Origin: a virus | Length of the DNA: 56,310 nt | IMG/VR virus record: IMGVR_UViG_3300022562_001240 | Direction: 5' to 3' (one strand) | In this document: positions 17,776-45,225 of the stretch, piece by piece | Numbering within the stretch: the first letter of the stretch is position 1 | How the letters are laid out: every line of letters starts with the position of its first letter | Position numbers and translations under genes: made by a program | The notes under the pieces: generated by a model | The model's database searches: none | Told to the model about the DNA's origin: nothing | Seen by the model: only the letters and a program-made list of their open reading frames with translations

Positions 17776-18207
17776 TCAGATTTCAATGGTGGACTTGAAG
17801 GTGTTTGTTTCGGGATCAAATTTGAGAGTTGTGATCAATTCCCAGTGCGGGTCGGCCTTCGGGACGTACTCTTTTTGTGTGTAGAACATGGCTTCTATGA
17901 CGAATTCGTACTCTTTTGCCGCCACTTCGTCATCTGACATGCCCGCCAGAAGATCCTCGCACATCTCCCGACAAATCCGGTAGCAATCCGGCATCCGGGC
18001 GCAATGGATCTTGTTCATAACCATCGAAGCCTGAAACGCCTTGTCAATCTTCAGCAGATTGATGATGTCTCGCTTCTCAGGGCCATCGCCGAAAATAGCG
18101 ACGGCAGAGAACTTCGCCATCACCTGCCCAGCTTTCGGGCCGTGCTTGCGGGTGTCGAAGAAATAGTCGTGAAAATTGCTGTCGTCGATGATGACTTCTT
18201 CTGTCAC
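17776..18207 (-). CDS. hypothetical protein (143 aa)
   Basis: Its start overlaps the dnaE fragment stop by 4 nt. Confidence 0.45.
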   Translation of the reverse strand: MTEEVIIDDSNFHDYFFDTRKHGPKAGQVMAKFSAVAIFGDGPEKRDIINLLKIDKAFQASMVMNKIHCARMPDCYRICREMCEDLLAGMSDDEVAAKEYEFVIEAMFYTQKEYVPKADPHWELITTLKFDPETNTFKSTIEI

Positions 18208-21086
18208 AGATCCTCCAGAATGTCGAAGCCTTCTTCGAAGGTCAGGTCCGTCAGGATCGACTCATCGGGCTTCTCAGGCTTGGGTATCGTCTTCATTACT
18301 CTGATGCGATAATCCTCATCTTTCGGCGGCAGTGTGTTCCGCTTATGCTTCGGAACGCTGTCGAAGGTGAAAGTGTTATATCCACCAGATGGGGGCCTCA
18401 TGCGAACTTTCAGCAGAGCACCCTTCTTCAATTCGTCCTGCCATCTGGTGTAGTCGTCTGACCAGATATTCATCTTGGCCTGCCGACTATTCGCATCCTC
18501 AAATTCAACAGAGTAAAAAACGACACCATTCTTGCTGGTTCTTTTCCGAACCGACAAGATCTTCACTTCGATGGGCGCAGGGGCGTCACCATCTTTGTCG
18601 CATTCTTCAAGGAAGTAGTCGATGGTGCGACCAGTGAAATCTGGACTCGATTCCAATTCATGATTCCATTGGAAACCATAGTATTGAGACTCGGCCATCG
18701 GATATGTCCGCTGGTCAAAGACCATCATGTAGTCATTCAGCACGGCTACTTCTTCTTCGTCCAACTTCACCGACGCCGCATTGAACCCATCCATCGTGAT
18801 CGGATTCTCATCATCGTCCTTCTCATTCTCCTCGAATCGACGCACGCTGGTTGCTCGTTTGTTCGACAAATCGCTGAGCATCTTCGCCACAGAAACCTGT
18901 CGCACTCGATCCTCACCCTTGTACTTGTAGGGCACGTCACGGACGATATGTTCAAAGCGTTCTTCCCAGAGCTTCTCAGCCTCTTCAGTGAAGCGAGCCA
19001 TCTTATCGAAGTCGGGATCGCTCTCAGTGATCTCAGTGAGAAGCAACTCACGCAATTCTTCATCCTTCTTGACCATCGAGCCTTCGAAGCGTTGTTGACG
19101 CTGCCGACGCTTGGTGATTTTGTCTTTGAAGAACTCATGGAACTTCCGCAAATGTTCTCTGTCATAGTGCGGCTCCAGTTCGTCGAACACGCCCAGAGCG
19201 ATGAGGGCTTTGAGCGGCGCACCATCCGTTCCAAATTTTGTAAGGAAGTCCGGGAAGTCCTTGTACGGCTGATTCTCCACGATGCGATCAGCCACCGCTT
19301 CCCCGATGCCCTTGATGTTCTTGAATCCGAAGTAGACCTTCCCATCAGCGATGTTGAAGTTCATCTTCGACTTGTTGATGTTCACCGGACAAACCTCAAT
19401 GCTATGTTTCTTGGCATCCAGTTTGTACTCACGGAACTTCTCGTGATCCTTCTCACACATCAGCGTGGCTGCATAGAACTCCAGAGGATAATGCGCCTTC
19501 AAATACAGCAGTCGTGACGAGATGTAGGTGTAAGCACAAGCATGGGACCGGTTGAACCCGTATTCGGCGAATGACTCAATTTGATCCCAGAGATCACTGA
19601 CGAACTCCAGATTCGCCCCGAGGTTCTTCTGGCCGTTCGTCAAGAACATCTCTTTGTACTTGGCGAACTGAGACACCTTCTTCTTTGAGATGGCTTTACG
19701 CACTTTCTCAGTGTGCATGTCAGGAATGTTCCCGACGATACGCAAGATGTCCATGACTTGTTCTTGGTACACAAGAACGCCGTAGGTCTTGCCGAGACTT
19801 TGTTCCATGATCGGATGGATGTTATATGGCTCGCCGCCCTCACGGTCGCCATCACGCCACTTCTTGCGTTTGCAGTAGCGGGCGTCCATCCCCATGTTCA
19901 ACGGGCCGGGACGATAGAGAGCCGAATAGGCCACCAGATCTTCGAAGCTGGTCACACCACCACGCTTCACCAGCTTGCGAATACCTTCGCCGTCAAACTG
20001 GAAGATACATCGCAGGTCGGCTTTGTTAGCCATCTCAATCGCAGCAGGATCATTGAGATAAGAGATGTCAGACCAATCGGTGTCCCCCTCTCTGGCACAG
20101 ATGGATGTAAGACCATATCGCTTCTTCACGAGTTCTGCCGCCAGAGCGATCTGCATGAGGTTGTTGATGACCAGAAGGTCGAACTTGATCAAGCCCACCG
20201 GCCCAAGGTCTTGATGGGCGAGGCCCTCAGACCATGCCGAGCAGATTACACCGTTGGGATGCTGCTTGTTGACCTTCCGCACTTCGAGCGGCACGAAACC
20301 ATCGATTCGCTTACTGGAGATAATCAGACCTCCAGCATGGACGCCAGAGTGAGTGTTGCGGCCCTGAAAGAGTTTTGCCGCTTCGGCGATCTCTGGGTTC
20401 TCTTCGCAGTAGAGGGCAAACTTCACATATGCGGTGTCGGCAGGGACGCTGCCTTTGGCTTTCCGAAGTTCAGAGAACTTCTGAACCCAATCCACATCGC
20501 CGGTCTCCAACTCCTTCTTAATCTCATCCTGCTCTTCTTTGGTGGCGATCTGGAAGGTGGCGATTTCAAAGATCTTGTCCCACTCCAGCGGCTTGCCGTC
20601 GTCATCCTTATCTTCAAGCATCGACGTGATGCCTTGAATCTCATGAATGTCAGCCCCATGCACACGGGCCATATCCAAGATGGATGACTTGATGCCCGCC
20701 GTTCCGTAGGTGCCGATCTCACAAACCTTCTCTTGGCCGTAGGCTTGAGCCGCCCACTGCTCTTTGAGGTAGTCTCGCACCGGCTTCAAGAAGTCGATGT
20801 CGATATCGGGGAACTCGCCCTGAATCCAAGTGTTGGGCCGCTCGATGTCGAACTGTCCTGTGAGATCCAACAGGTAGTCGATGAGGTTGTTGTGTTCGTT
20901 CTCTGGGAAGATTAAGTTTTCCGCCCGAAACTTATCGTGAAGGCCAAGAAGGTACTCATGCTCAGCCTGAGCATCGATTTCCTTAAGCTCTGACTTCAGC
21001 CGTTCCTTGTACCTGACATCCTGCATCAAGCCTCGCTTCTCCATAGATGCAAGGCACAAGCGGATTAGCTTGTCTCGTTCCTTCAT
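18204..21086 (-). CDS. dnaE: DNA polymerase III alpha subunit (DnaE-type), C-terminal fragment: palm catalytic site, fingers, beta-binding and OB regions
   Basis: 960 aa. Contains FPDIDIDF (catalytic Asp pair), GRNTHSGVHAGGLIIS, IKFDLLVIN (FDFLGL-like) and YGFNRSHACAYTYIS (FNKSHAAAY-like), all in the DnaE order. Confidence 0.85.
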   Translation of the reverse strand: MKERDKLIRLCLASMEKRGLMQDVRYKERLKSELKEIDAQAEHEYLLGLHDKFRAENLIFPENEHNNLIDYLLDLTGQFDIERPNTWIQGEFPDIDIDFLKPVRDYLKEQWAAQAYGQEKVCEIGTYGTAGIKSSILDMARVHGADIHEIQGITSMLEDKDDDGKPLEWDKIFEIATFQIATKEEQDEIKKELETGDVDWVQKFSELRKAKGSVPADTAYVKFALYCEENPEIAEAAKLFQGRNTHSGVHAGGLIISSKRIDGFVPLEVRKVNKQHPNGVICSAWSEGLAHQDLGPVGLIKFDLLVINNLMQIALAAELVKKRYGLTSICAREGDTDWSDISYLNDPAAIEMANKADLRCIFQFDGEGIRKLVKRGGVTSFEDLVAYSALYRPGPLNMGMDARYCKRKKWRDGDREGGEPYNIHPIMEQSLGKTYGVLVYQEQVMDILRIVGNIPDMHTEKVRKAISKKKVSQFAKYKEMFLTNGQKNLGANLEFVSDLWDQIESFAEYGFNRSHACAYTYISSRLLYLKAHYPLEFYAATLMCEKDHEKFREYKLDAKKHSIEVCPVNINKSKMNFNIADGKVYFGFKNIKGIGEAVADRIVENQPYKDFPDFLTKFGTDGAPLKALIALGVFDELEPHYDREHLRKFHEFFKDKITKRRQRQQRFEGSMVKKDEELRELLLTEITESDPDFDKMARFTEEAEKLWEERFEHIVRDVPYKYKGEDRVRQVSVAKMLSDLSNKRATSVRRFEENEKDDDENPITMDGFNAASVKLDEEEVAVLNDYMMVFDQRTYPMAESQYYGFQWNHELESSPDFTGRTIDYFLEECDKDGDAPAPIEVKILSVRKRTSKNGVVFYSVEFEDANSRQAKMNIWSDDYTRWQDELKKGALLKVRMRPPSGGYNTFTFDSVPKHKRNTLPPKDEDYRIRVMKTIPKPEKPDESILTDLTFEEGFDILEDL

Positions 21087-21099
21087 GGTTCGACCTTCC

Positions 21100-22128
21100 C
21101 TAGTCGTAATAGTCTGGCGGTACTTCTGGTTTACCGAAGCCTATGTTCCCTTCAAAGTCTTTGTCTTGGACGGGTTCCTTCATTTTCTGAAGGGTCTTGA
21201 TGGCTTCATCGTATTCGTCGCCAATGATCACCACTGCCACAAAGAGTTCTTTAAGGTGGGCCAGCGACATCTCGTCAGTATCCTTTACCCACTGATTTAA
21301 GTCAATGTCGAGTTTGGAGATGTTCTCTTCGCCAATGAGGTGCTTAAAGTAAATCTCTCGTGATTCCGCAGTTGGGAAGCCGATGCGGAATCGTTTGTCG
21401 AATCGACTGGGCCGATTCATGATGCGAGGTTGAAGAGCGTGCGGATAGTTGGTGGTCGCCAAGAATATCGTTTTGTCAACTTCGTTGGCTCCATCAAGGA
21501 GATTTAAGATCTCCGATTCATTGTGCATTTCAAGAAGAGCGTCCAAGTCTTCCATCACAACAACGACTGGCGTGTCTGACTGGATTTGCTTCAGTTTGCG
21601 ATAGCCCTCAACAAAGAGATATGGCTCTTGGAATTCAAGGACCACGCCGCCACGCTTCACCACATCTTGCATGATGAACTGAACGGTGCTGCTCTTGCCG
21701 CTCCCCGGAGGCCCATGAAGAATGATGCCTCTCTTGTAGGTGATGCCATATTCCCTGAAGACATTTTCTCTGTCCCAGAACTTCTGTACTTCGCTGATCA
21801 CACGATCCGACTTTGTGTCAGGAAACCTTAAGAGACCCTCTGTTTTTACAGGAATCTTTTCGAAGAAGATGCCCACGTTGGGGGCACTCTTAATCTCATA
21901 GACTCCCGGCACCAGCCTGTCCACAGTGCGACTGGATGGGACAAAGATGCGATTGTCCGAAGTGGACCATTGACAGTATGTTTGTTCGATATCTTTTTCT
22001 TCTTCATCAACAGAGCAGTTTCCGTAAGCTGGCATAGCATTCCTCCTTGATTTGGCACGGGGAGCCTTCCCCATCTTGTCTAGGGTTCTCAGAGCCTTCC
22101 TGAATCTCTCATCCAAACTTTTAGACAC
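21100..22128 (-). CDS. AAA+ ATPase (classic AAA family)
   Basis: Walker A ILHGPPGSGKSS, Walker B VVVMEDLD, and a sensor-2-like NRPSRFDKR. Confidence 0.8.
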   Translation of the reverse strand: MSKSLDERFRKALRTLDKMGKAPRAKSRRNAMPAYGNCSVDEEEKDIEQTYCQWSTSDNRIFVPSSRTVDRLVPGVYEIKSAPNVGIFFEKIPVKTEGLLRFPDTKSDRVISEVQKFWDRENVFREYGITYKRGIILHGPPGSGKSSTVQFIMQDVVKRGGVVLEFQEPYLFVEGYRKLKQIQSDTPVVVVMEDLDALLEMHNESEILNLLDGANEVDKTIFLATTNYPHALQPRIMNRPSRFDKRFRIGFPTAESREIYFKHLIGEENISKLDIDLNQWVKDTDEMSLAHLKELFVAVVIIGDEYDEAIKTLQKMKEPVQDKDFEGNIGFGKPEVPPDYYD

Positions 22129-22191
22129 ACCTGCCTCCGTGCATAGATACCGTAGTATAAGAAACTACGGATTATCCGGCAAGGAGAATAT

Positions 22192-22569
22192 ATGGCCCTA
22201 GAATACAAGCTGGAATTCAACACACCAAGCGGTGCTGCTGATGATTCCGTGTACATCCATCTGAGAGTTGACCCTGTTTATCGCACCAGAATTGGCAAAG
22301 AAGCCTATTCGCTGCTCGACGCCGCAGACAAACAACCCCTGATTACAGAGCTTTTTGACATCGCTGGCGTCGTGGAAATCTCCACCAAGGCTCACCGAGT
22401 CTGGCTGATGAAGTCGCCTATCTTTTCTTGGCAAGAAGTGTTGCAGCCGGTACTCTTCTTGTTAAGAGACCGATTTGGAGAAACATCGATCTCGCCACTG
22501 CCGGGATCTGCTGAAATCGATGGCTCTGGATTGCGACTAGACTCGGACACGAATCGGAGAACAATATGA
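22192..22569 (+). CDS. hypothetical protein (125 aa)
   Basis: AAGGAGA ribosome-binding site upstream. Its end overlaps the next ORF by 4 nt (translational coupling). Confidence 0.45.
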   Translation: MALEYKLEFNTPSGAADDSVYIHLRVDPVYRTRIGKEAYSLLDAADKQPLITELFDIAGVVEISTKAHRVWLMKSPIFSWQEVLQPVLFLLRDRFGETSISPLPGSAEIDGSGLRLDSDTNRRTI

Positions 22570-23126
22570 CAGAACTGCTCCCCGGACCTTGGGTTGGACA
22601 CGAACAGGATTTCGACAGAATACGACCCCAGATCCCAGAACAGGGAGATATCATCGAGTTTGGTGTCTTCCAAGGCGGCACCACTCGACAACTGGCAACT
22701 TGGGGTCGCCGTGTCTGGGCACTGGATACCTATGGCGGAATGCCAAGTGAAGACTTCAGTGCCGAACATGGCGATCACGATTTGCCGGGCAAGTTCAACC
22801 CGTCAGAAGGCCCATGGGGCGAAATGAGCGTTTGGAGAATGTTCAAGGATTTCCCAAACATCTGTCCGCTCAAGGGTCGATTTGTAGAGACCCTACCTAT
22901 CATTCCACCAAGTATCCAGATTGCCTTTGCTTATATGGATTGTGATCTGTACGAATCATACCATCAGGCTTTCTCGTGGCTGGAGAAGCATCTAATGCCG
23001 AAAGCCCACGTTTTGATCGATGATTACGGGGCCTGTGCTGGCTGCCGCAAAGCTGTTGACGAATGGTCGGCAGATAAGCCTATCGAATGGATCATCGCCT
23101 GCAAGCACTTCATTTGGAAACAATAA
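22566..23126 (+). CDS. TylF/MycF-family SAM-dependent O-methyltransferase
   Basis: Motif I IIEFGVFQGGTT and the family-typical DCDLYES. Confidence 0.6.
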   Translation: MTELLPGPWVGHEQDFDRIRPQIPEQGDIIEFGVFQGGTTRQLATWGRRVWALDTYGGMPSEDFSAEHGDHDLPGKFNPSEGPWGEMSVWRMFKDFPNICPLKGRFVETLPIIPPSIQIAFAYMDCDLYESYHQAFSWLEKHLMPKAHVLIDDYGACAGCRKAVDEWSADKPIEWIIACKHFIWKQ

Positions 23127-23898
23127 CTTGACGAGGCACCTTTCCCTCATCCCACAACGACTGAATGGGAGAGATGATTGATGGCAAAGATGGATCTCCA
23201 TAGACCCTGAATACTGTTGGGAAATGCTGAAGATACAACGCCGAGTATTCATCCAGATAGTCCTCGATGGTACAATCTGTCATCAAAAACCCCTCTGAGA
23301 ACATCCGTTGTCCATTATCTTGATGGTGAAGCAGTTCGCCAAAGCGTTTCTTGACTTTCTCTAGCGACCTATAATGGCATATGCCATTGGAAACAGCCGC
23401 CCCTTTCGTTTGGACAACAATAGTCTGCCTTTTCTTTCCACGCATAATTTTTTTGGAGAAATACATCGGCCCACAAACACTACACAAGTAATCACACCTT
23501 TTGTTCTCCAACATCCTAATCAATTCTGCATCAAATCCATTCAGAGTCGGGATGTAGTCGTCCTCCATCAAGATGTAGTAGTCAAACTGAGAGCCGTACT
23601 GATCAAAGATGCGGGAGTATTGGCCGTATGAGTAGCCCTTGTTTGGAGTGCGGACAACATGAATAGGGACACCTGACTTCAGTTGAGACAGGCTATTCAT
23701 GAATGAAGTGTATCTCCCGCTCTCCTTTGGATTCTCGGGCCAACCCACTGTGATTTGATCCAGATTGTGTTGAATCGAATCTAAGCGGGCCAGATGTTCT
23801 TCGATGTAGCAACGCCTTTCATCGAAACCGCATCTGACTCGCTTGCCGCTCCATGTGGCAATCATGTAGTTTGTACGCATATCGTATGTACGATACAA
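23110..23898 (-). CDS. hypothetical protein (262 aa), possibly a glycosyltransferase
   Basis: Contains an EDD acidic motif (ILMEDDYIP); no firm family assignment. Confidence 0.4.
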   Translation of the reverse strand: MYRTYDMRTNYMIATWSGKRVRCGFDERRCYIEEHLARLDSIQHNLDQITVGWPENPKESGRYTSFMNSLSQLKSGVPIHVVRTPNKGYSYGQYSRIFDQYGSQFDYYILMEDDYIPTLNGFDAELIRMLENKRCDYLCSVCGPMYFSKKIMRGKKRQTIVVQTKGAAVSNGICHYRSLEKVKKRFGELLHHQDNGQRMFSEGFLMTDCTIEDYLDEYSALYLQHFPTVFRVYGDPSLPSIISPIQSLWDEGKVPRQVIVSK

Positions 23899-23914
23899 AT
23901 TTTGGACTGGCGCA

Positions 23915-23955
23915 CGAAAAAACCCGCTTCCCCTTTGCTGTTGGGGAAGCGGGTT
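23915..23955 (-). terminator. rho-independent terminator downstream of the tmRNA-like gene
   Basis: 13-bp stem AACCCGCTTCCCC / GGGGAAGCGGGTT with a 9-nt loop, followed by UUUUUU on the minus strand. Confidence 0.65.
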
Positions 23956-23968
23956 CTTCTAACTTGAG

Positions 23969-24348
23969 TGGACCGGACGGGATTCGAACCCGTGTCTTGC
24001 TCTGCCGTCAAAGCGGCGTCTACGATCATGTCTCTCGATTTGAGTTGTCGGCCAGCCGGTCGCTCATGAGAGCACAGCTACCATGCCAGCTTAGTCGATT
24101 TGAGTTTCGCCCATCTCTCCTACGACTCGGAGATTCAGGACTATCCTGATGGCGGTACGTCGCAGACCTATCAGGCATCGGTCATTGACGCTTCGGACGG
24201 GCCTAGCCCGTCACTGCTTACGCAGCCATGCGAAGAGGAGTCGAAGTTTCGACAATTATGGTTTTGAATGACTTTTAACGTGGCCCGTCATTCAACCACG
24301 GATCGCAGCCATCTTCTCAGAACAGCCAATCGATTCCAATTCCAGCCC
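23969..24348 (-). ncRNA. ssrA: tmRNA-like gene (transfer-messenger RNA)
   Basis: The 3' end is GGGUUCGAAUCCC (T-arm), then CCGGUCC and a discriminator A. The 5' end GGGCUGG pairs with that strand using two G-U wobbles. It is followed by GAAUUGGAAUCGAUUGG, which resembles the tmRNA 5' consensus GAUUCUGGAUUCGACGGG. An internal frame GAA ACU UCG ACU CCU CUU CGC AUG GCU GCG UAA would encode the tag ETSTPLRMAA, ending Ala-Ala-stop. No 5' acceptor partner for a normal tRNA lies within 90 nt. Confidence 0.5.
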
Positions 24349-24670
24349 AAGTTTTCAAAGATCAAGCCACCAGCCTGCCTTACCTGCACGTTGCCATCGT
24401 GTGCTATAGTCAGGGAGCCCCTGCCGTCATCGCAGTTCTCCCTCCAAGCCGAGGCGACCGGCTTTTCAGGTATGCAGACACCTTCACAGCCTTGCGGCTC
24501 CAGCGGGTGACTAAATCCAGTTTTGCCTCGGAGAGCACTGCCGAAGGACGGAAACTGGAAACATCCCTTCGATCACGGCTCTTTCCCCGAGGGGCCTGTA
24601 CGCTAGGCTCTCCCCTTTCGGGGTCGCTTCGGTCAGGTACTCTACATAGTATGGCACGGCCCGATTTCAG

Positions 24671-24898
24671 TCAAGCCGCTTCCCACATTTTCCTGCACTT
24701 GTCGAGCAGTGCGGGGTCTTTCGGAATTGCCTTGCGGATCTTCCCTTCTGTCTTGGCCTTCTCCATCGGGCAAGGATCGGTGTCCTTGTGGCGTCGGGGA
24801 TTCCGGCACTCGCAATGGCATCGAAACTTGCACCGAGGCGGCTCCTCAAAGAGTTGCCAATCGACCACGAAGACAGGTAGCATTTTGCATGTCAACAT
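24671..24898 (-). CDS. small Cys-rich protein (75 aa)
   Basis: GGAGGTG ribosome-binding site 5 nt upstream of the ATG at 24898. Contains CKFRCHCECRNP...CPMEK...CRK. Confidence 0.4.
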   Translation of the reverse strand: MLTCKMLPVFVVDWQLFEEPPRCKFRCHCECRNPRRHKDTDPCPMEKAKTEGKIRKAIPKDPALLDKCRKMWEAA

Positions 24899-24961
24899 GA
24901 TGCACCTCCGTTTGTGCGAGTTTCTTAATCATCTGTAATATAGCACAAACGAAAGAAAAAG

Positions 24962-25276
24962 TCAGTCCCACTTGGCAACCATCTCTTCTAAGGTTTCCGG
25001 CTTCAAAAAGCGGTCGCCCATACGGTCACGAAGACGAGGAGATGCAGAAGAGTCCTCTGCACTGATCATGAAGTTGAGCGGCACCAGCGAGAAATCGTCT
25101 GGCGTGAGTTTGCGGCCCAAACGATTCTCCAGACAGCCAATGCACAAGAAGTGTGCGAAACCGGCGTGCATGGCGGAAACCCATACATGGTGTTCGACCA
25201 TGTACCATTCGCCAATGCCACCATCACGAGAACATGTTTCTACCCGACAATCGTGACATCGTGAATCAGGATACAT
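24962..25276 (-). CDS. hypothetical Cys/His-rich protein (104 aa)
   Basis: ORF on the dominant strand. Confidence 0.4.
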   Translation of the reverse strand: MYPDSRCHDCRVETCSRDGGIGEWYMVEHHVWVSAMHAGFAHFLCIGCLENRLGRKLTPDDFSLVPLNFMISAEDSSASPRLRDRMGDRFLKPETLEEMVAKWD

Positions 25277-25344
25277 GACGCATCCTTACTACGAGCAGGA
25301 AACAAAGCCAAGCGATCCCTGCCAGCGAATGCGGGTATCCAACA

Positions 25345-25593
25345 TTAGCCAAAACGATTCCGGGAGTCACGAGAGCCATGGCGATAAAAAATCTCATCGG
25401 CTCCTGAGTCCTGTCGTAACTTCTGTTCAGCTTCGAGAACACGGGGATCATCCTCATCAACGAGCAGGTGCCATCCCACCCACAATGCAAAACATACAAC
25501 TCCGCTAATGATCAACCAAGCAATCGTCAGGGGTAGAAACGAAGCGTTTCCCAACATGACCAAGCACACCATGACGGCCTCCGAGCCCACCAA
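25345..25593 (-). CDS. putative holin-like protein (two TM helices, charged C-terminus)
   Basis: AVMVCLVMLGNASFLPLTIAWLIISGVVCFALWVGW is followed by a charged tail. It overlaps the 3' end of the upstream peptidase gene. An alternative frame (25266-25499) exists, so the call is uncertain. Confidence 0.3.
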   Translation of the reverse strand: MVGSEAVMVCLVMLGNASFLPLTIAWLIISGVVCFALWVGWHLLVDEDDPRVLEAEQKLRQDSGADEIFYRHGSRDSRNRFG

Positions 25594-26198
25594 GCGGCGG
25601 ATCTTTCACACCAGCTTTTCTTCTCCGAATCTCTAAGAACCACATGGTATTGTTTGCCTAGCTGGTGATGGCAAACCCTGAGCAAACCATGCAGGTCTCC
25701 CGGCGAGATGGTACGGTTTGGGGCCGAAAAATCTCTTCGCCCTGTCGCTTCAATAGCAGCGGCGCACATCTCAGAGCAATGTGTACCATTTGTCTGCACA
25801 TTCCGCAAGTAGCCCCGGACGGAGTACCGGCGTCCCACTTGAGTCTCCAGAAACTCTTTCATTTTGGAGACTTCTGCATCCGAATATGGCCTGTTCGGCG
25901 TGACCACTGTGACCAAAGCTGGGCTCTGTGGATGTGACGTGTTGTAGTCACCCATGGCCGTCAGCCATTCCTCAATGGTGTATCTCTTCACAACAGGCGG
26001 CTCGGCTTCATAGACCCATGTTTTGTCACCATATTTGACGACGACAGCAACATGGCTGAATGACGACTTCGTGTAACACTCGACGAGGTTGTGGCTGTTC
26101 TGGACGAACAGCATGTCGCCGCTGTGCAGGTTGTCTGAAAAGGCATGAACAGGTGCAGCGAAAAGAAGAATCGCTGCGATGACTTGTAGGAATCGCAT
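25527..26198 (-). CDS. secreted permuted papain-fold peptidase (YiiX/DUF830-like, NlpC/P60 superfamily)
   Basis: Signal peptide MRFLQVIAAILLFAAPVHA. GDMLFVQNSHNLVE...SHVAVVV ... HCSEMCAAAIEATG reproduces the YiiX-type order with the catalytic Cys near the C-terminus. Confidence 0.55.
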   Translation of the reverse strand: MRFLQVIAAILLFAAPVHAFSDNLHSGDMLFVQNSHNLVECYTKSSFSHVAVVVKYGDKTWVYEAEPPVVKRYTIEEWLTAMGDYNTSHPQSPALVTVVTPNRPYSDAEVSKMKEFLETQVGRRYSVRGYLRNVQTNGTHCSEMCAAAIEATGRRDFSAPNRTISPGDLHGLLRVCHHQLGKQYHVVLRDSEKKSWCERSAAWWARRPSWCAWSCWETLRFYP

Positions 26199-26262
26199 CG
26201 CTACCTCCGTGAATAAGTATGCACGAAACGATTATTGCAAAATTTGGAACAGAAACCAAGAG

Positions 26263-26922
26263 TCATTTCTGAATGACTGCCTCGATACTGTACTCCCCGA
26301 CAGGATGTTGATCGGGGGCCACGAGATGATTGTAGCCCTCATCAATCACTCGAAAGTCCACGATGTTCGCATTGGGGATCGCTTCCAAAATAACTCTTTT
26401 GAGACTCTTGGTGCATGGCGGCTCATCTGTCTCGGGCAGCCAGAAATACTTGTGATCTGGGTTCCATTGGCTCGGGAGCATCTTTCGCTTCTCATATAGG
26501 TCTCTATGGGGGATCGAAATAATCAGGTGCCCACCCGGCTTGACCAACTCAAACCAACGTGCCAACGCCTTCTCTGGGAACTTCATGTGTTCCAAAACGT
26601 GACTGGCATAAACTGTCCAGTATGTGTCGTTTGGAAAATCATACATGAATTGTGCGTCACCGTCACCAAATGCCATATCGAAACGACGAAATGTCTTGTT
26701 CACCGGATCTTGCGAGCAACCAATGTCCAACCCGAGCTTGTCTTCGGGACAATACTTCTCATACCAACCTTCTCTCAAACGTCTCTCCCGAGCACGACTG
26801 GTTTCTCCGTTAAAAAAATTTGCCATATAATCTCCTATCGCTGGCGAAAACTTGTGTTCCCATTCTTCCAAATTCTCGTCATCTGGGATGTGCCCTCCCA
26901 TGTGAACGGCTTTGAATGTCAT
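26263..26922 (-). CDS. class I SAM-dependent methyltransferase
   Basis: LDIGCS (motif I) and SHVLEH. Start moved to the ATG at 26922 (MTFKAVHM), which has an AAGGAGG ribosome-binding site 5 nt upstream. Confidence 0.6.
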   Translation of the reverse strand: MTFKAVHMGGHIPDDENLEEWEHKFSPAIGDYMANFFNGETSRARERRLREGWYEKYCPEDKLGLDIGCSQDPVNKTFRRFDMAFGDGDAQFMYDFPNDTYWTVYASHVLEHMKFPEKALARWFELVKPGGHLIISIPHRDLYEKRKMLPSQWNPDHKYFWLPETDEPPCTKSLKRVILEAIPNANIVDFRVIDEGYNHLVAPDQHPVGEYSIEAVIQK

Positions 26923-26998
26923 GACGCCTCCTTTCTTTAATAACAGAGTCTCGCCGCCAAATTTCCCTTCCAAAGTCTAAATATGGTGGAGGTGTGAT

Positions 26999-27172
26999 AT
27001 GCCACTACAACGAGATCACGAAAACAAAATGATTCTTGGCGTCTGTGCAGGACTTGCCAAAGAAATGAACATCGATCCCACAGTCATGCGGTTGATTTTC
27101 GCCGTTGCAACTTTGATGGGTTTTGGATTGCCGATTTTGATCTACATCATTCTGGCAATCGTCATGAAATAA
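26999..27172 (+). CDS. PspC-domain small membrane protein (57 aa)
   Basis: MPLQRDHENKMILGVCAGLAKEMNIDPTVMRLIFAVATLMGFGLPILIYIILAIVMK is a PspC N-domain followed by a TM helix. GGTGGAGG ribosome-binding site upstream. It is below the 60-aa cut-off of the ORF track. Confidence 0.6.
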   Translation: MPLQRDHENKMILGVCAGLAKEMNIDPTVMRLIFAVATLMGFGLPILIYIILAIVMK

Positions 27173-27181
27173 GGAGAAACC

Positions 27182-27928
27182 ATGGGACTATTCCAAGAAT
27201 ACATGGATGCCAAAGGACAGGTGAAGAAGCCTGTCGTTGACATTCATGGAGGCAAACCGACGCCAGCAACACCGCCGACCAAACCGCCCAAAGAACACGG
27301 AAACGCTCCGTACATCGCCAAAGGCGAAAAAGGCGGAAAGAAAGGGTTCGGCGATCTCGGCGACACAAAGTGTAAGTGTGATGGCAAGGAACCCGCTCCA
27401 GCCAAGATTCCAACAGCCGAACATGCCGAAATTGCAGCGTTGGTTACAGACGTGATGCTGAAAGATGGTGCTCTGGTCGAACAACTGGTCTACCAGTTGA
27501 AGAACAAGGGCCTACTGGGCGTTGTGGTCGCAGAGATGTTGACCTACAAGGAGACGTACCAGCATCTCACAGAAATCATGGCTCACGAATCATATGGTCC
27601 CAAGGTTTGCGGCAAGCTCATTCGTGCCATGAACGAAGAAGTTGCCCCACCACTCAGTGCCAGCCTTGAAGGCGAAGACATTGAGGATGACGCAGACGAA
27701 GCCGAGGAAGGCGATGAATTCGACAATGAATTCTCGGGCGACATGGAAGGCATCGATGATGAAGACATTGACATGCAAGACGCCGACTTCGAGATGGACC
27801 CAGCCCAAGCGGCTGATCCCTTGATGATGGACCCGACCATGCAACAACAAGCTCCGGGCCAAGCTCCAATGGCCCCGCCACACGGTCAAGCAATGATGCA
27901 CCTTCAACGTGCAATGATGAGACGCTAA
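27182..27928 (+). CDS. member of the N-terminal-motif family (MGLFQEYMDA...); acidic centre and Met/Pro/Gln-rich tail
   Basis: AAGGAGAAACC ribosome-binding site. N-terminus MGLFQEYMDAKG. C-terminus ...DPTMQQQAPGQAPMAPPHGQAMMHLQRAMMRR. Confidence 0.5.
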   Translation: MGLFQEYMDAKGQVKKPVVDIHGGKPTPATPPTKPPKEHGNAPYIAKGEKGGKKGFGDLGDTKCKCDGKEPAPAKIPTAEHAEIAALVTDVMLKDGALVEQLVYQLKNKGLLGVVVAEMLTYKETYQHLTEIMAHESYGPKVCGKLIRAMNEEVAPPLSASLEGEDIEDDADEAEEGDEFDNEFSGDMEGIDDEDIDMQDADFEMDPAQAADPLMMDPTMQQQAPGQAPMAPPHGQAMMHLQRAMMRR

Positions 27929-28149
27929 TGAATTTCAAACAATGGTTCGAAGAGACTGAAGCAGAAGAACATGCAAAGCGTAAGATGCTTGGCGCAAAGC
28001 GTTATGCTGCCAATAGTCGTTCGGATCATCTGGGACGCCCCAAAGGTGCGACTGTGGGAGGGAACCCACGGTACAGGGGAGGCAAAGGTTGGTGGACCAA
28101 CGTAGGCCCAACCAGAACACAGGACAAACGAGATGAACGAGAAGAGTGA
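27928..28149 (+). CDS. member of the N-terminal-motif family (MNFKQWFEETE...); small basic protein
   Basis: Start overlaps the previous stop in TAATG. N-terminus MNFKQWFEETEAEE. Confidence 0.45.
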   Translation: MNFKQWFEETEAEEHAKRKMLGAKRYAANSRSDHLGRPKGATVGGNPRYRGGKGWWTNVGPTRTQDKRDEREE

Positions 28150-28360
28150 CGCACGCCCAGCCACAAAAGATCTTCTCGACAGTATTCGTGGCGTCTTCAA
28201 ACACTATAGCAAATCAGCGAGAAGAAAATCGTGGGACGCCCTGATGTCACCGGGTGGCAAGTCCGTCGTCAACAAGTTGATCACCGACCCGAGGGCACCA
28301 GTTGTTGGCATCCCACGATTGCTCCGTTTCAAAGAATGGATCGAATCACTCGATCAGTGA
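28133..28360 (+). CDS. hypothetical protein (75 aa)
   Basis: ORF following the + strand block. Confidence 0.35.
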   Translation: MNEKSDARPATKDLLDSIRGVFKHYSKSARRKSWDALMSPGGKSVVNKLITDPRAPVVGIPRLLRFKEWIESLDQ

Positions 28361-28761
28361 ATCAATCTTCTTCAGATCCTCTTCTGTGAAGTACATCTTG
28401 GCACCTAACTTCTTGGTTGGTCCCGGCAGAAATCCTTCGATGACGTACTTCCTCAAATCGTCATATCTGACATTCAACCAGCGAGCGGCTTCGGCCAGAC
28501 TGTAAAGCTTGTCTCGCAAAATGATTCGTCGAGGGACTGGCTTCAATCTCTTTCGGATGGCACACTCTTTACATCTGAAACCACGACTGAAAGCATTCCA
28601 ACAAGTCATGTTGGTTTTTCCGCAACCTTTGCAACGATACTTCAACCGTTGCTTGCAACCTCGATACTCTTCTGACAGAAGTTCGCAGTTGGCCTTACGG
28701 AAACCCTCTCGGATATCGTCAATCGTAAGCTTCGGTCTTCTAACTCTCTTCTCCTTGGGCA
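28346..28761 (-). CDS. DNA-binding regulator: zinc ribbon plus a C-terminal excisionase/MerR-like helix-turn-helix
   Basis: CKGCGKT...CKEC zinc ribbon. YSLAEAARWLNVRYDDLRKYV helix-turn-helix. Start placed at the ATG at 28761 (MPKEKRV...) with AAGGACAG upstream. Confidence 0.45.
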
Positions 28762-29087
28762 TGTGATCTGTCCTTGTCAAACACGCCATCTGGATACCGG
28801 GCACTCAGCTTCTCGACATTTGCATCGATCACCTCTTGAAGTGAACTGCCAATGGTTCGGGCAGCAAATGCCAGATACCACATGCAATCACCCAGTTCCT
28901 TGACAGCGACTTCCTTTTTCAGTTCTTGACCGTGAAACACGACCTTCTTCATATGGTCGGCAAATTCCCCGGCCTCTCCAGCCAAGCCCAGCCCTCCGAG
29001 ACACAATTGCATTTTCGGTGTCTCTGTCGATTGAGGTGAGGCCAGTTTCAGCACGAATTCTTCGTATTCGGGTAGTGTCTTCGACAT
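28740..29087 (-). CDS. mazG: MazG-like nucleoside triphosphate pyrophosphohydrolase
   Basis: LGLAGEAGEFADHMKKVVFHG...ELGDCMWYLAFAARTIG...ANVEKLSARY matches the MazG/NTP-PPase EExxE helix pattern. Confidence 0.65.
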   Translation of the reverse strand: MSKTLPEYEEFVLKLASPQSTETPKMQLCLGGLGLAGEAGEFADHMKKVVFHGQELKKEVAVKELGDCMWYLAFAARTIGSSLQEVIDANVEKLSARYPDGVFDKDRSHAQGEES

Positions 29088-29098
29088 CCTTGTCTCCT

Positions 29099-29365
29099 TC
29101 AGTACAAAAGTTGTAACGCATCAATGAAAACACGCAGAGCGAGGCACAGTATTCCTGTAGCAGCCACCACGACCATCCAGTCAATGATGGTCCACTGATG
29201 CCACCTCAAAGATGCTCGCAGCCCGGTGGCTTCGGCATCGGAGGCGGCGGCAACCGTTTCTCGATCTCTTCCAGTTTTTGAAGTATCTTGATTTGGTTCT
29301 TCAAAATCTGGCTGATTTGATCGGCGATCAATGTGGGGAAATTCATGGTTGGAACCATTTTCCAT
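29099..29365 (-). CDS. membrane protein (88 aa; C-terminal TM helix)
   Basis: IIDWMVVVAATGILCLAL hydrophobic segment. Confidence 0.4.
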   Translation of the reverse strand: MENGSNHEFPHIDRRSNQPDFEEPNQDTSKTGRDRETVAAASDAEATGLRASLRWHQWTIIDWMVVVAATGILCLALRVFIDALQLLY

Positions 29366-29822
29366 TGAACAAAATCTTGGGGCCTCCCAAGTCTCCTTCG
29401 AGCCAGACAGTTTCTACTCCTGACTCAGCAAGCATCGTGAATGCGTGTTCGATGGATTCCTTCCAGTGATCCGGCGTTCCATCGAGCATCTTCTTGTGTC
29501 CAACCACCTGCCGGATGCCAACACTGATGATGGCCCGAGCACAATCCGAACAAGCGAACCACGGAACATACATGGTCGAACCCGGAAGTGGCAGTTGAAG
29601 CTTGGCAGCCTTGAAGATGGCGTTGCGTTCGGCGTGCTCAATGAAGTTGTACTTCAATGGCCGCTGCAAACGATCATCTGTGACTTTCACTCGATCTGGG
29701 AAGCGATTACAGTCTTCTGCTGTTCCCGCCGAAGTGACAACCACGGCTCCGTTCTGGGTTGATGGGTCAGGGCTTTTCGTAGCAGCCTTGTACGCCATCA
29801 ACATGTATTGCTGAGGTGTCAT
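29343..29822 (-). CDS. CMP/dCMP deaminase family, copy 2
   Basis: HAERNAI ... FACSDCARAI zinc-ligand motifs. Confidence 0.7.
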   Translation of the reverse strand: MTPQQYMLMAYKAATKSPDPSTQNGAVVVTSAGTAEDCNRFPDRVKVTDDRLQRPLKYNFIEHAERNAIFKAAKLQLPLPGSTMYVPWFACSDCARAIISVGIRQVVGHKKMLDGTPDHWKESIEHAFTMLAESGVETVWLEGDLGGPKILFNGKWFQP

Positions 29823-29839
29823 CCTTGACTCCTGATGGG

Positions 29840-31249
29840 TTAAGCTGCATCCGCATGTGGGATCGGCTGCAAGCTGTGTCGAATCTTCATCTGCTTACCG
29901 CCACGAGCCGGGCTCAAGAAACGACTGAATCTCAAGTCGTTGATGATTGGCTCCACATCATGCAATCGCAGGCAGTAAGCCACCAGTGAACCGCAAGCCG
30001 AACCACGGCCCGGACCCACGGCTTCTGAGCCATCGCCGAACCCAACAATGCTGGGGCCGACATGGCGAGCTTCATCTGTCATCTGTTTCTGAATCAGGAA
30101 GTAGCTGGAGAAGCCCTTCTCACAGATCAGGTCGTACTCTTCCCGGATGCGGGATGAGTATTCCTTGGTGGCTGGACAACCTCGGGCCTTGAAGCCTCGC
30201 AGGGTCTCTTGCCATAGAAGGTCATCGGCATCTGGAATCTTCGGGAGCTTGATGTCCCTGTCGATCTCAACGCCCTTTGCTTTCTCACAGATGGCGATGG
30301 TGTTTGCTTTGGCTTGTTTGAAGATCTCGTAGTCGATGATGTCTTTGTACTTCAACTCCCACATGGCGTTGAGTTCGTCTTCTGACTTCAGCCACAGATT
30401 GGTGTCCTGAAGCTCAAAGAGATCATCGGCTTGACCGGAATCGATCATGGCCTGCACTTCTTGAATCGTGCGTTTGTTTTGCTGCATCAGCATGAGTCGC
30501 TGATTGTGACTGTGCTCTTTCTTGATCATCGGGAGACCGTACTTCTCGTGTGCCCGAATGAGGAAGGCGTTGTACGGCCCCTGCATCTTCCAGTCGAGCA
30601 TCATCATTTCAAGGTAGAAGTTGTCTCGACCGAGCATGTCGATGTAGTATTCCAACATTTGGAATCCCGCCTCATCGCCGCCCTCAAAGAAGGCTGTGGC
30701 TATTTCGCTGATGCCACAACCACTGGTGAAAATGATGCCTTCCTTGTGTTCTCGGAGAGCATCATGGTTGATTCGAGGGCGATAGTAGTATCCGTGAATC
30801 CACGCCCACGACGACAACCGAACGAGGTTTTGGTAGCCGATGTTGTTATAGGCAATAGCGAGCAGATGACATGATTTGCGGAAGATCTTCTGCTCTGGTG
30901 TTTGGGCTTTCGTCTCGGCATTGGGATCGCCAAGACTCTTGTAGAACTCAGCCGTATCAGAACGAGTGTTGGATTTGGGCTGCATCCGATTGACATACAA
31001 CTCGCAACCGAACAGCGGGTACAAGTTGTGCTTCTCTGCTTGTTCGATCTGCTGGGGAACTGCGCCCATAACCCCGTGATCGGTAATGCAGAGATACTTC
31101 TGGTTGATCTCCTTCATCCGCTGGGCATACTCCCACACCATGGCAAAGCCATCGAGAAGAGAGAAATCCGAGTGTCGGTGAAGATGCTCAAAGCCCATAA
31201 TCGGATGGTGCATTACTCGTCGCCTTCCTTGGTTCCGTTTTGTTGCCAC
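29840..31249 (-). CDS. dnaE: DNA polymerase III alpha subunit (DnaE-type), N-terminal fragment: PHP domain, thumb and start of the palm
   Basis: 469 aa. FEHLHRHSDFSLLDG and ITDHGVM (PHP motifs), then GPGRGSACGSLVAYCL. It ends at ...DLRFSRFLSPARGG, the position just before the catalytic PDxDxDF that opens the second fragment. Confidence 0.85.
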   Translation of the reverse strand: MATKRNQGRRRVMHHPIMGFEHLHRHSDFSLLDGFAMVWEYAQRMKEINQKYLCITDHGVMGAVPQQIEQAEKHNLYPLFGCELYVNRMQPKSNTRSDTAEFYKSLGDPNAETKAQTPEQKIFRKSCHLLAIAYNNIGYQNLVRLSSWAWIHGYYYRPRINHDALREHKEGIIFTSGCGISEIATAFFEGGDEAGFQMLEYYIDMLGRDNFYLEMMMLDWKMQGPYNAFLIRAHEKYGLPMIKKEHSHNQRLMLMQQNKRTIQEVQAMIDSGQADDLFELQDTNLWLKSEDELNAMWELKYKDIIDYEIFKQAKANTIAICEKAKGVEIDRDIKLPKIPDADDLLWQETLRGFKARGCPATKEYSSRIREEYDLICEKGFSSYFLIQKQMTDEARHVGPSIVGFGDGSEAVGPGRGSACGSLVAYCLRLHDVEPIINDLRFSRFLSPARGGKQMKIRHSLQPIPHADAA

Positions 31250-31975: not shown

Positions 31976-32659
31976 CTACTCGGTGCTCCTTAAAGAATCA
32001 AGGTCAGGATAATCGCTGCTTCCCAGAATCCCATCTGCCAAACCATAAAAAACGGCTTCTTCGGCTGACATGTACCAATCGACCTCATCTTTAAGTTTGC
32101 GGTCAAAAAATTTGTATGCCGTATCGTAAGTGGCCGTCTTCTTCCTCTTAAAGAATTCTGCTGTTTCTGAGGAAATGGCTTTTTCGGCAAAGATCTGCAA
32201 CATACGCTTGCAGGCCCGCTCTTGGAACTCGGCTTCGTTTTTCAGAGCGTAGGGATGCACCATTGAGCCTCCCGAGTATCCGTGGTGCATCAAGAAGTGG
32301 CAGTCTGGCATCATGATTCTGAGGTCTGCCGCTTGGAAGATGATGCCGCTCATAGAAGATGTCTGGGAGTATCCCAACATTGTGATCTGGCTGACTGCAT
32401 ACTCGATAGAATTGAAAACCGCCATGCCATTGTCCCAGCACCCACCGGCAGAGTGGAGATGGACCAAAATGGGTTTGTTGGGCGACTGATCGAGCAAATG
32501 CAAATTCTTAATAAAAGTCGTGGCTTGCCGGTAATCGACTCCCGGTTCTGACTCGTCGTCCTTGACATAGTAGCTGTGAAGGTAGATTTCCCTTCGATTG
32601 AGATTCACCTGATGATTGTGGATGTCATAAAGAACTTGATCCTTGGACTGACGGGCCAT
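31976..32659 (-). CDS. ClpP-family serine protease (possible prohead / maturation protease)
   Basis: ILVHLHSAGGCWDNGMAVFNSI (cf. ClpP INSPGGSVTAGMAIYD), catalytic Ser in GYSQTSSMSG, His in FLMHHG, and C-terminal AEEAVFYGLADGIL (cf. EAVEYGLVD). Confidence 0.65.
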   Translation of the reverse strand: MARQSKDQVLYDIHNHQVNLNRREIYLHSYYVKDDESEPGVDYRQATTFIKNLHLLDQSPNKPILVHLHSAGGCWDNGMAVFNSIEYAVSQITMLGYSQTSSMSGIIFQAADLRIMMPDCHFLMHHGYSGGSMVHPYALKNEAEFQERACKRMLQIFAEKAISSETAEFFKRKKTATYDTAYKFFDRKLKDEVDWYMSAEEAVFYGLADGILGSSDYPDLDSLRSTE

Positions 32660-33540: not shown

Positions 33541-33861
33541 TTAGTCTCCCATGATCAGCGATCCGAGATCATCGTCGATGCCAGCAGGCTTGACGTATCC
33601 GGTCGCTTCGAGTTTCTTTTGTGTTCGATAGGCATTCCGAAGACTCATACAACAATCTTCGGCACGATCCCATCCTGCCGTCTTCCAGACATCTTTGAGT
33701 GGGCCGACGTTCTGCCAGCCCTTCTCTGTGAGGTATTCAGCCATCACTTTCTCTTCGGCCTGACGAGCCTCTCGCTTCTTTTCCTTTTGCTTCTCTCGAC
33801 GGCGGGTCTTAGAAGCAGGTTCGTTGGCTCGCTTGGCACGTTGCTTTTTGGTTAGTGTCAT
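33541..33861 (-). CDS. hypothetical protein with a basic N-terminus (106 aa)
   Basis: Lys/Arg-rich N-terminus; overlaps the spoVR stop by 4 nt. Confidence 0.4.
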   Translation of the reverse strand: MTLTKKQRAKRANEPASKTRRREKQKEKKREARQAEEKVMAEYLTEKGWQNVGPLKDVWKTAGWDRAEDCCMSLRNAYRTQKKLEATGYVKPAGIDDDLGSLIMGD

Positions 33862-35459: not shown

Positions 35460-36454
35460 TACTCGGTTCTCCTCCAGATATCATCCACATCATACGAGAT
35501 ATCTGTAATTAACTCAAGCTCTTCCCGCACTCTTCTTATAGGTTCCGACCAATCTCCTTCGGTCGATTGCCAGAAGAGTTTAACCGTGTCGTACCACATG
35601 GTTGTTTTAGAACGATCCCACAAAGGATTATCGTCGGATTTCATCAATCCAAAAGTTGGTTTGTTCATGGTGCCTGCCAAATGAAGGACAGATGAGTCTG
35701 TCGCAATGACCGCATCCATGGCGTCGATCAAAATTGCCACGTCGTTGAAATCGTATGTTGATGGCATCAACATTGATTCGGTGTTGGGCAAGGTGTAAAT
35801 GTTCCATCCCGATTCTTTAAGGACGGCCATTTGTTCCTCGGGGATTTGTTTGACGTGCAAACCACAAGCGGGCCGATTGGGCTGTATTGCCGCCTCGCCG
35901 TGAGGCAGAATCTCTGGCTGCCAAGGAACTTTGGTCTTCAGAATGACCGATCTGTCGGCGGGATAGTAGTGATCCAACTTGAGGCCACTCAACAGAGCCG
36001 GGATGCACATGATGTTGGTGTGGTAATCGCAAAGGACATGCTGATTGGTGAACTCATCCACGAACCAAACATCTTCCATCAATTTCTTTAAGGCTTCGTA
36101 GGCCGAGTAGCAATTCAGCACGATGCGACATTCCCATTCCCGCTTCAAAGCGGCGAGATATCTAAAGAAATTGATGGTGTTGCCGATGTTGAAGTCCGTG
36201 AACACTTCAATGGACGATCCACGCAGGGACTCCCCCCGCCAGTTGCGGCCAAAGTGTTTGGAAAGGTCTGGACGTGATGCGCCCAGTGTGTCTGAAACAA
36301 TCAGGCTGTAGAGTTCGCCGATGAGTTCGTGACTGGGATCTAATTTGCGGATAACTTCCAACAACTTGACGGCTTTATCGGGCAAGCCGATCCAGTAGTA
36401 GTTGTTGACAGTCGCCAGACCTTGATCAAGATACTGTTTGGAGTCCCGTGCCAT
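35459..36454 (-). CDS. GT9-like glycosyltransferase (heptosyltransferase family), paralog C
   Basis: VIATDSSVLHLAGTMNKPTFGL matches the GT9 D-SG-MHLA-A-G-P motif better than paralogs A and B do. Confidence 0.5.
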   Translation of the reverse strand: MARDSKQYLDQGLATVNNYYWIGLPDKAVKLLEVIRKLDPSHELIGELYSLIVSDTLGASRPDLSKHFGRNWRGESLRGSSIEVFTDFNIGNTINFFRYLAALKREWECRIVLNCYSAYEALKKLMEDVWFVDEFTNQHVLCDYHTNIMCIPALLSGLKLDHYYPADRSVILKTKVPWQPEILPHGEAAIQPNRPACGLHVKQIPEEQMAVLKESGWNIYTLPNTESMLMPSTYDFNDVAILIDAMDAVIATDSSVLHLAGTMNKPTFGLMKSDDNPLWDRSKTTMWYDTVKLFWQSTEGDWSEPIRRVREELELITDISYDVDDIWRRTE

Positions 36455-38530: not shown

Positions 38531-38610
38531 GATGCTCCCCTTGTGTAAGAAAAGAGGGCGATAGCGGTAGAGTAACGATCAACCACCACTACCGCCCCCA
38601 ACGTCCGTCA

Positions 38611-41952: not shown

Positions 41953-41984
41953 GAAAAGCCGCCAGAAATGGCGGCTTTTTTCAT
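41953..41984. terminator. bidirectional rho-independent terminator between convergent genes
   Basis: AAAAGCCGCC-AGAAAT-GGCGGCTTTTTT: a GC stem with U/A tracts on both sides. Confidence 0.6.
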
Positions 41985-45007: not shown

Positions 45008-45225
45008 CAGTCAGTTCCTCTTCTGAAGATCAAGCTTGCCACCCATCCCAGAATCATGCCAACCAGCAATGACAGAGGCGCAGCAAGATACAACCACACA
45101 ACAACATATGCCCCGCCAATTGACGGGTCTTGTTCTGCGGCAGCCCCGCCAGCATTTTGCAGCCATATCCAAGAGCCAAGCAGGCCCAACAGACCACCGC
45201 AAACAACAAACAGAAACTCTCTCAT
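45007..45225 (-). CDS. small membrane protein (2 TM helices)
   Basis: Two hydrophobic helices. Sits between folA and thyA, overlapping each by 1-4 nt. Confidence 0.4.
   Translation of the reverse strand: MREFLFVVCGGLLGLLGSWIWLQNAGGAAAEQDPSIGGAYVVVWLYLAAPLSLLVGMILGWVASLIFRRGTD

Follow-up and report, generated by a model that had tools for sequence, protein, structure and literature searches.

A DnaE-type polymerase divided between two intein-free genes with an overlapping pseudo-module in an uncultured huge phage

The locus described here lies in a 56,310-nt stretch of viral DNA (IMG/VR record IMGVR_UViG_3300022562_001240; hereafter, the window), in which the sequence of a DnaE-type replicative DNA polymerase is divided between two genes, alpha-N and alpha-C (Table 1). 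A first-pass annotation of the same sequence had placed the two halves on the minus strand in open reading frames (ORFs) 29840-31249 and 18204-21086, and both frames are open at these positions. The gap between the genes is 8,753 bp, matching the 8.7 kb noted previously, and it contains the transfer-messenger RNA (tmRNA) that the annotation had seen there, recovered here by both ARAGORN and Rfam. Its count of about 12 intervening genes was too low, as in a near-identical contig 17 protein genes are called in this interval, besides the tmRNA. The alpha-N frame is open from a GTG at 31249; alignment with relatives indicates that the true start is most likely the ATG at 31213, which is preceded by a GGAAGG ribosome-binding site. 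The ribosome-binding site of alpha-C (GGGAAGG) lies 7 nt 5′ of its ATG, which itself lies 13 nt past the stop codon of an upstream AAA gene.

Table 1 Features of the divided polymerase locus and its surroundings (positions in the window)
Feature	Position	Strand	Description
alpha-N gene	29840..31213	-	457 aa from ATG 31213; PHP, palm-N helices, GPGRGSxCGS loop, FSRFLSPAR helix, tail
alpha-N C-terminal tail	29843..29896	-	18 aa, KQMKIRHSLQPIPHADAA, after FLSPARGG; from the translation listing and conservation profile
24-nt in-frame deletion	30524..30525	-	in alpha-N; removes LTQDCHYC, the PHP D-x-H metal-ligand motif
alpha-C gene	18204..21086	-	960 aa; pseudo-palm-N, DxD strand, thumb, palm-C, fingers, HhH, OB, C-terminal region
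Pseudo-palm-N module	20808..21086	-	alpha-C residues 1-93; degenerate paralogue of alpha-N residues ~350-450
AAA+ ATPase, classic clade	21100..22128	-	Pfam AAA; 13-nt spacer to alpha-C; best PDB matches YjoB, AFG2, p97 and BCS1
Variable intervening block	22129..29839		two methyltransferases, tmRNA, C92 peptidase, HTH protein, MazG, dCMP deaminase, small ORFs (Pfam)
tmRNA	23966-24348	-	ARAGORN; Rfam 88.5 bits; predicted tag VETSTPLRMAA

Together the two proteins comprise the domains expected of a DnaE-type C-family polymerase, namely a PHP domain, a Pol-beta-like palm with the GS motif and three aspartates, and fingers, helix-hairpin-helix (HhH) and OB domains downstream, with sequence matches to DnaE that reach E values of 1e-40 to 1e-64. 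They depart from a DnaE in not forming a single polypeptide: there are two genes, each with its own ribosome-binding site and stop codon. In alpha-N, Pfam detects the PHP domain already recognized in this fragment (PF02811, E 4e-38) and positions 8-98 of the DNA_pol3_alpha profile; in alpha-C, it detects positions 100-259 of the same profile, the finger domain PF17657 and HHH_6 (PF14579), so that the halves abut at a single profile position. Alignment of alpha-N with solved structures in the Protein Data Bank (PDB) spans DnaE residues 3-411 and matches FLSPAR of alpha-N with FLNPER, at approximately residue 396 of Escherichia coli DnaE. In alpha-C, FPDIDIDF corresponds to E. coli D401/D403 and GLIKFD to K553/D555, here K301/D303 (counted along the E. 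coli alignment). The break thus maps between E. coli R396 and D401, immediately before the catalytic aspartates, and alpha-C resumes where alpha-N stops, as had been proposed.

Each protein carries an additional element at the break, and no hallmark of an intein is present at either junction, in agreement with the first-pass annotation. Alpha-N ends in a basic tail that starts with lysine and has, across the alpha-N family, the consensus GGKQMKIRHS[IL]EP[IV]PHE after RGG. There is no Cys/Ser-1 at this tail and no HN-C/S/T motif at the start of alpha-C, and a Pfam search found neither a Hint or intein family match in either protein nor split-intein halves. The isolated pseudo-palm segment gave no Pfam match even at E<=10, and Rfam detected no intron RNA in the window. 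The tail and the pseudo-palm have the same form in all split relatives examined. Inteins are frequent at other sites in the family (approximately 25 alpha-C homologues and several alpha-N homologues carry full ones), so the absence of inteins at the junction does not stem from a lack of exposure to them.

The first 93 residues of alpha-C repeat a part of the polymerase that is also present in alpha-N. When both are compared by BLAST with the intact 1,179-residue DnaE of the uncultured phage LR756511, alpha-N aligns with residues 1-433 and alpha-C from residue 336, an overlap of 98 residues. A profile comparison with hhalign, using the first 92 residues of 114 C proteins and the last ~129 residues of 109 N proteins, relates the two segments with a P value of 2.9e-5 over 44 columns and the shared motif Y..RL..EL..I....Y.L. 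By these sequence comparisons, the overlap is a true conserved paralogous copy; the 18-residue tail and the N-terminal repeat of about 90 residues, both of which had been noted earlier, are real. The repeat had been assigned to the thumb, and this was wrong: the duplicated segment corresponds to E. coli residues ~315-400, in the N-terminal palm, and the thumb (433-510) is located in alpha-C. In the alpha-C copy, GPGRGSACGSLVAYCL of alpha-N is replaced by FPENEHNNLIDYLLDL, the arginine-bearing FSRFLSPAR helix is lost and there is no GS loop. The mean top-residue frequency of the pseudo-palm is 0.66 (95 homologues); the corresponding values are 0.82 in the catalytic core and 0.61 in the C-terminal third. 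Placing the alpha-N tail in register with the DxD strand is ambiguous; a one-residue shift gives D to K/R and V to I/H, a pattern that is suggestive at most.

The same division is found in a large set of related sequences. The best 120 alpha-N clusters (57-98% identity) are nearly all 445-483 residues long and contain PHP and DNA_pol3_alpha only, and the best 120 alpha-C clusters (53-100% identity) are 890-983 residues long and have no PHP domain, with approximately 25 of them longer through true inteins elsewhere. These clusters derive from JGI, ENA, Logan and NCBI assemblies and include contigs of up to 693 kb; the window itself matches a 239-kb JGI contig (P0121). The conservation across well over 100 sequence clusters supports the view that the split is kept under purifying selection, and the recurrence of the two-ORF form in independent assemblies argues that it reflects neither decay nor artefact. 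A scan of IMG/VR queried with the C-protein alignment yielded 77 loci, including 57 distinct split loci. In 39 of the 57, alpha-C is preceded on its own strand by an N gene at a distance of 0.33-9.6 kb (median 5.05 kb). In 13 others, no N gene was found over a stretch of at least 9.5 kb, and one locus (L082) has it on the opposite strand. The spacing is only 0.33 kb in L047, 7.9 kb in a 539-kb NCBI contig and approximately 10.3 kb, with the C gene downstream, in the 693-kb contig; in the 686-kb contig Ga0642625_00006, the genes diverge from opposite strands at a distance of 11.2 kb. The content and length of the intervening DNA vary widely between relatives.

The residues that make up a DnaE active site are distributed between the two proteins in a complementary manner. 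G400, G402, R403, G404, S405, R431 and R437 are invariant in alpha-N, and D94, D96, K301 and D303 (E. coli D401, D403, K553 and D555) are invariant in alpha-C. Alpha-N alone has the triphosphate-binding elements, and alpha-C alone has the metal ligands, the lysine and all DNA-binding domains. Within alpha-N, the GRGS loop and the two arginines form the best conserved stretch, above the PHP domain.

AlphaFold2 models of the monomers are consistent with a composite active site. The alpha-N model has a mean predicted local distance difference test (pLDDT) score of 80.7, with the PHP domain and palm-N helices predicted confidently; scores fall below ~55 at the GS loop (402-405), in the Arg helix (431-439) and along the tail, and residues 235-273 near the deletion in the PHP domain are also weak. 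In alpha-C (mean pLDDT of 76.9), the pseudo-palm helices (79-91), fingers and OB domain are confident; the pLDDT falls below 50 in the DxD strand (89-101) and the palm sheet (246-305, including K301 and D303), with further weak regions at 331-339, 393-399 and the C terminus. The alpha-C model matches the fold of full-length DnaE structures over ~950 columns, and its C-terminal part matches OB folds.

Taken together, we consider it probable that the two genes encode a functional DnaE-type replicative polymerase of a huge phage, translated independently and assembled non-covalently, without splicing, around a composite active site. Alpha-N would contribute the PHP domain and the triphosphate-binding half of the palm, with the GRGS loop and Arg helix receiving the incoming deoxynucleoside triphosphate (dNTP). 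The metal-binding half (D94, D96, D303 and K301) would come from alpha-C, along with the thumb, fingers, HhH and OB domains. The two proteins would associate without a covalent link and rebuild one active site in trans. Each also appears to retain a non-catalytic remnant of the other half: in alpha-N, the 18-residue, β-strand-like tail at the point where the DxD strand would follow, and in alpha-C, the 93-residue pseudo-palm-N. We infer that these conserved remnants serve as docking or clasp elements of a heterodimer, and they may pair with each other.

A split intein might instead ligate the translated halves, as happens with cyanobacterial DnaE and 'fractured genes'. The abundance of inteins at other sites in the family speaks for this, as do an intein-N-like piece and a free ORF after YRPGPLN in one split locus (L004) and three loci (L078, L079 and L083) that are broken at the site of the window split and bear weakly intein-like extensions. 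Against it stand a tail of 18 residues with lysine first, no Cys/Ser-1 and no Hint domain, an alpha-C that begins with a palm-N paralogue in place of HN followed by Cys/Ser/Thr, the lack of any intein-like Pfam match in either junction segment even at E<=10, and the constant form of the junction in all split relatives examined; ligation is therefore very improbable. We give as little credence to the idea that the fragments are decaying pseudogenes or an assembly artefact and that the phage replicates with another polymerase. Only 56 kb of the genome is visible, which leaves room for such an enzyme, and a conserved PHP motif is missing from alpha-N of the window through a 24-nt deletion that is unique to it. 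However, independent assemblies yield well over 100 clusters in which both ORFs are likewise intact; relatives show no frame disruptions, conservation is strong, and the catalytic residues are invariant and all present across the two proteins. The deletion itself is in frame and is one of just three differences from an independent contig over 9.1 kb.

An unlikely but more substantial alternative is that the proteins act separately, with alpha-C made self-sufficient by its pseudo-palm in cis and alpha-N serving as a stand-alone PHP exonuclease or pyrophosphatase, or as an accessory subunit. The pseudo-palm is spaced near-canonically from the DxD strand and is confidently helical in the monomer model, and PHP domains can proofread independently, as those of Taq and Mycobacterium tuberculosis DnaE do. 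Alpha-C nevertheless lacks every triphosphate-binding element of palm-N, its palm sheet has a pLDDT below 50 when modelled alone, and the GRGS loop and two arginines are the most conserved part of alpha-N, a conservation left unexplained if alpha-N binds no dNTP. That a mobile block of 8.7 kb recently entered an intact dnaE is suggested by LR756511, the closest deposited phage, which has an intact 1,179-residue DnaE in a syntenic region; the idea is hardly tenable when the block contains no transposase, integrase or homing endonuclease detectable by Pfam, includes an AAA gene that in LR756511 is found upstream of the intact dnaE, and has counterparts of different length in relatives at 53-80% identity that are split likewise, and when a sister lineage (L166) has the same architecture.

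Several observations weigh against the composite polymerase that we favour. The linker between the pseudo-palm and the DxD strand is near-canonical, so the pseudo-palm could fill the palm-N position in cis and clash with the palm-N of alpha-N supplied in trans. The low pLDDT at the active-site elements could stem from a shallow alignment (~40 sequences) rather than from absent partners. The loss of eight residues of the PHP motif means that the PHP function of the alpha-N copy in the window may be impaired. Finally, in neighbour-joining (NJ) trees, the backbone that bears on the polarity of the change, from intact to split or by re-fusion, has bootstrap values of 1-58%.

These NJ trees were built from 496 columns of the C core and 418 columns of the N part, the latter tree being disturbed by two poorly extracted rows (L050 and L066). 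The phage clade has a bootstrap of 100% in the C-core tree (95% after L166 was added). Within it, the intact forms (LR756511, L031, L038, L040, L051, P0246, P0252, P0253 and P0256) make up one subclade nested in the split radiation, and a split locus (L008) is its weak sister in both trees (56% and 58%). The closest intact relative of the window polymerase is the DnaE of LR756511, a 595-kb phage, with 49% identity to the N half and 39% to the C half; synteny between the window and LR756511 is strong across the whole 56 kb. No close split relative was found when the window halves, P0322, P0279 and the L166 C protein were searched with tblastn against 50,697 phage records, and in the P0279 lineage there is no C gene within 10 kb, the adjoining 941-residue ORF having no Pfam match. 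Genomes in GTDB contain only three loci of the clade, all on contigs of metagenome-assembled genomes that resemble mis-binned phage. The nearest cellular DnaEs have ~30% identity, and those checked (L090, L103, L131, L151 and L152) are intact.

A second, more distant lineage with the divided architecture is represented by L166 (10001-14706 on a 30-kb contig, JGI 3300038468), in which the N protein ends in RGGNLLKVTMQ and is followed by two small genes and then the C protein; RecA, DnaB, UDG and a Volactin-family gene are its neighbours. The palm-N copy of the L166 C protein is less decayed: DNA_pol3_alpha runs uninterrupted over positions 12-260, with the copy at 12-98, and the LGITxVDPI helix is kept, with NPNG in place of the GS loop. 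L166 is sister to the huge-phage clade in the NJ analysis (82% bootstrap). With the same architecture in both lineages, this placement suggests, without going further, that the split predates the radiation and that the intact subclade arose by secondary fusion. Adjacent halves, arranged as in L047, could be fused by one in-frame deletion. A comparison of the residues before PDxDxD gave no signal favouring either fission or re-fusion.

The divided gene most likely originated by a partial duplication across the palm-N/DxD junction, after which the two copies lost catalytic residues in complementary fashion, an ancient event common to a large radiation of uncultured phages. Duplication and loss also fit better than a simple insertion with the position of the AAA homologue, upstream of the intact dnaE in LR756511 but between the halves here. 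The first-pass annotation had offered a genuine two-subunit polymerase and an ancient insertion with a duplication at the junction as alternatives; the conserved split, the lack of an intein signal and the paralogous overlap support both as parts of one history. The intervening genes are no single recent insertion, as their spacing and content vary widely among relatives. A more specific version is possible but doubtful: the duplicated split would be ancestral to the huge-phage and L166-like DnaEs, the LR756511 subclade would have re-fused, and the tail would pair with the pseudo-palm while the catalytic halves pair in trans, in the manner of a reciprocal, domain-swap-like clasp; two genes would then yield a replicative polymerase independently of inteins, a design offered by nature for splitting enzymes of the C family.

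The 24-nt deletion is specific to the window. LTQDCHYC is present in 107 of 111 relatives, including one (P0001) with 98% identity. An independent JGI contig (L084) carries the 24 nt and is otherwise identical to the window over 9,132 nt save for 2 mismatches. The missing 24 nt could mark a strain in which the PHP site is disabled, or an error in the assembly.

Replicative polymerases of the C family are viewed as single-chain enzymes, and to our knowledge all solved and characterized DnaEs are single chains or are spliced into one. The bacterial and phage enzymes (E. coli, PDB entries 2HNH and 5FKU; M. tuberculosis, PDB entry 7PU7; and LR756511) have the same domains in the same order as the polymerase described here, which differs in consisting of two polypeptides, cut within the nucleotidyltransferase core between GS/Arg and DxD, and in its duplicated palm-N and novel tail. 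Split-intein DnaEs have reportedly been found in cyanobacteria (Wu et al. 1998; Caspi et al. 2003). These and the fractured dnaE genes, which also carry split inteins (Dassa et al. 2009, PMC2677866), are likewise encoded by two genes that may be far apart; however, they have Cys1 and Asn-Cys parts, are ligated and are interrupted at other insertion points, whereas the halves here overlap and have no intein. Timinskas et al., who surveyed bacterial Pol III alpha on a large scale, mention only splits by inteins and fragments due to frameshifts, and Al-Shayeb et al. (2020) used dnaE as a marker without discussing its architecture.

The closest parallel is a minimal Pol III alpha predicted in group 2.2 jumbo phages (Iyer et al. 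2021, Viruses 13:63, PMC7824862), which has no PHP domain, is intein-free and is encoded by distant genes, with an NTP-binding N unit and a Mg2+- and template-binding C unit; it is described as the companion of a family B polymerase within a replication module of T4-like type. Compared by description only, that enzyme is divided at the same structural boundary, GS/Arg from DxD, by genes that lie apart. It lacks PHP and the other Pol III domains, whereas PHP, fingers, HhH and OB domains are present here, and the paper mentions no duplicated overlap or tail, in contrast to the pseudo-palm and tail of the present proteins. No family B polymerase was found among the ORFs scanned in the 56-kb window. 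The split RNA polymerase beta/beta' of phiKZ-like jumbo phages is also a core polymerase assembled non-covalently from pieces, but its fold is unrelated and the likeness is one of analogy only. In the literature, we found no description of a full-length two-gene DnaE with an overlapping pseudo-module. Alongside the known split-intein and PHP-less minimal forms, the present one is thus full-length, intein-free and encoded by two genes with an overlapping pseudo-module, and it is widespread in uncultured huge phages.

If the proposed assembly is correct, the interface between two proteins can house a polymerase active site, and the locus would be a clear natural case of gene fission through partial duplication and complementary degeneration. 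It would also supply a ready split point and docking modules for engineered split polymerases. The cut DnaE persists in a large group of phages that are among the biggest known. Annotation pipelines give each half the name 'DNA polymerase III alpha', so that the genes may be mistaken for fragments or pseudogenes. Two PHROGs profiles of ~460 positions (phrog_7513 and phrog_13169) resemble N-only DnaE pieces in length and matches, judged from the profiles alone. A comparable split may therefore exist already in some sequenced phages, under annotations no more specific than 'DNA polymerase' or unknown.

Further breaks occur among the relatives. At L004 (19272-21356; GCA_036704275.1, a 539-kb contig), alpha-C is broken again after YRPGPLN, where a ~100-residue intein-N-like piece (CLREDTRIV...) ends the ORF and a free-standing Cys-rich ORF follows; the arrangement resembles a fractured gene in which a split intein is accompanied by a homing endonuclease, and the locus stops before the expected intein-C piece. 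In a distant DnaE clade of 27% identity (IMG/VR loci L083 8159-12085, L079 4252-8757 and L078 4051-6240), the gene is broken at the same site as in the window, FLLPERGG from LPDIDTDF. The N ORFs of these loci have a 70-80-residue β-rich extension with a sub-threshold match to Intein_splicing (E 0.002-0.015) and no Cys1, and the C ORFs have a start of ~33 residues ending in HGS or RGS, not HN-C/S/T. These extensions may be a degenerate, non-splicing split intein that serves as a docking pair.

The AAA+ gene adjoins alpha-C in 21 of the 57 IMG/VR split loci, and in relatives it often neighbours either alpha-C or an intact DnaE gene. The protein is not a clamp loader (best structural matches in Table 1) and may be a polymerase-associated unfoldase or chaperone. 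The variable block between the two genes lies outside the polymerase. No SmpB was detected among the window ORFs scanned. Two paralogous dCMP/cytidine deaminase genes are present on the minus strand (29343-29822 and 5290-5841); the former lies directly after alpha-N and is followed by MazG (28740-29087), and the gene order alpha-N, (acetyltransferase), deaminase recurs in relatives. LR756511 and other relatives share a trio of PrkA kinase, DUF444 (YeaH-like) and SpoVR genes, located in the window at 33858-40695 on the minus strand, where a GT9 glycosyltransferase and an FkbM-type methyltransferase interrupt it. The window also encodes host-like proteins of metabolism and proteostasis, all on the minus strand: a TPP-dependent enzyme (2558-4195), an HldE-like sugar kinase/cytidylyltransferase (41984-43351), thymidylate synthase (45222-46088), GlpX-type fructose-1,6-bisphosphatase (51874-52875) and ClpP (31976-32659).

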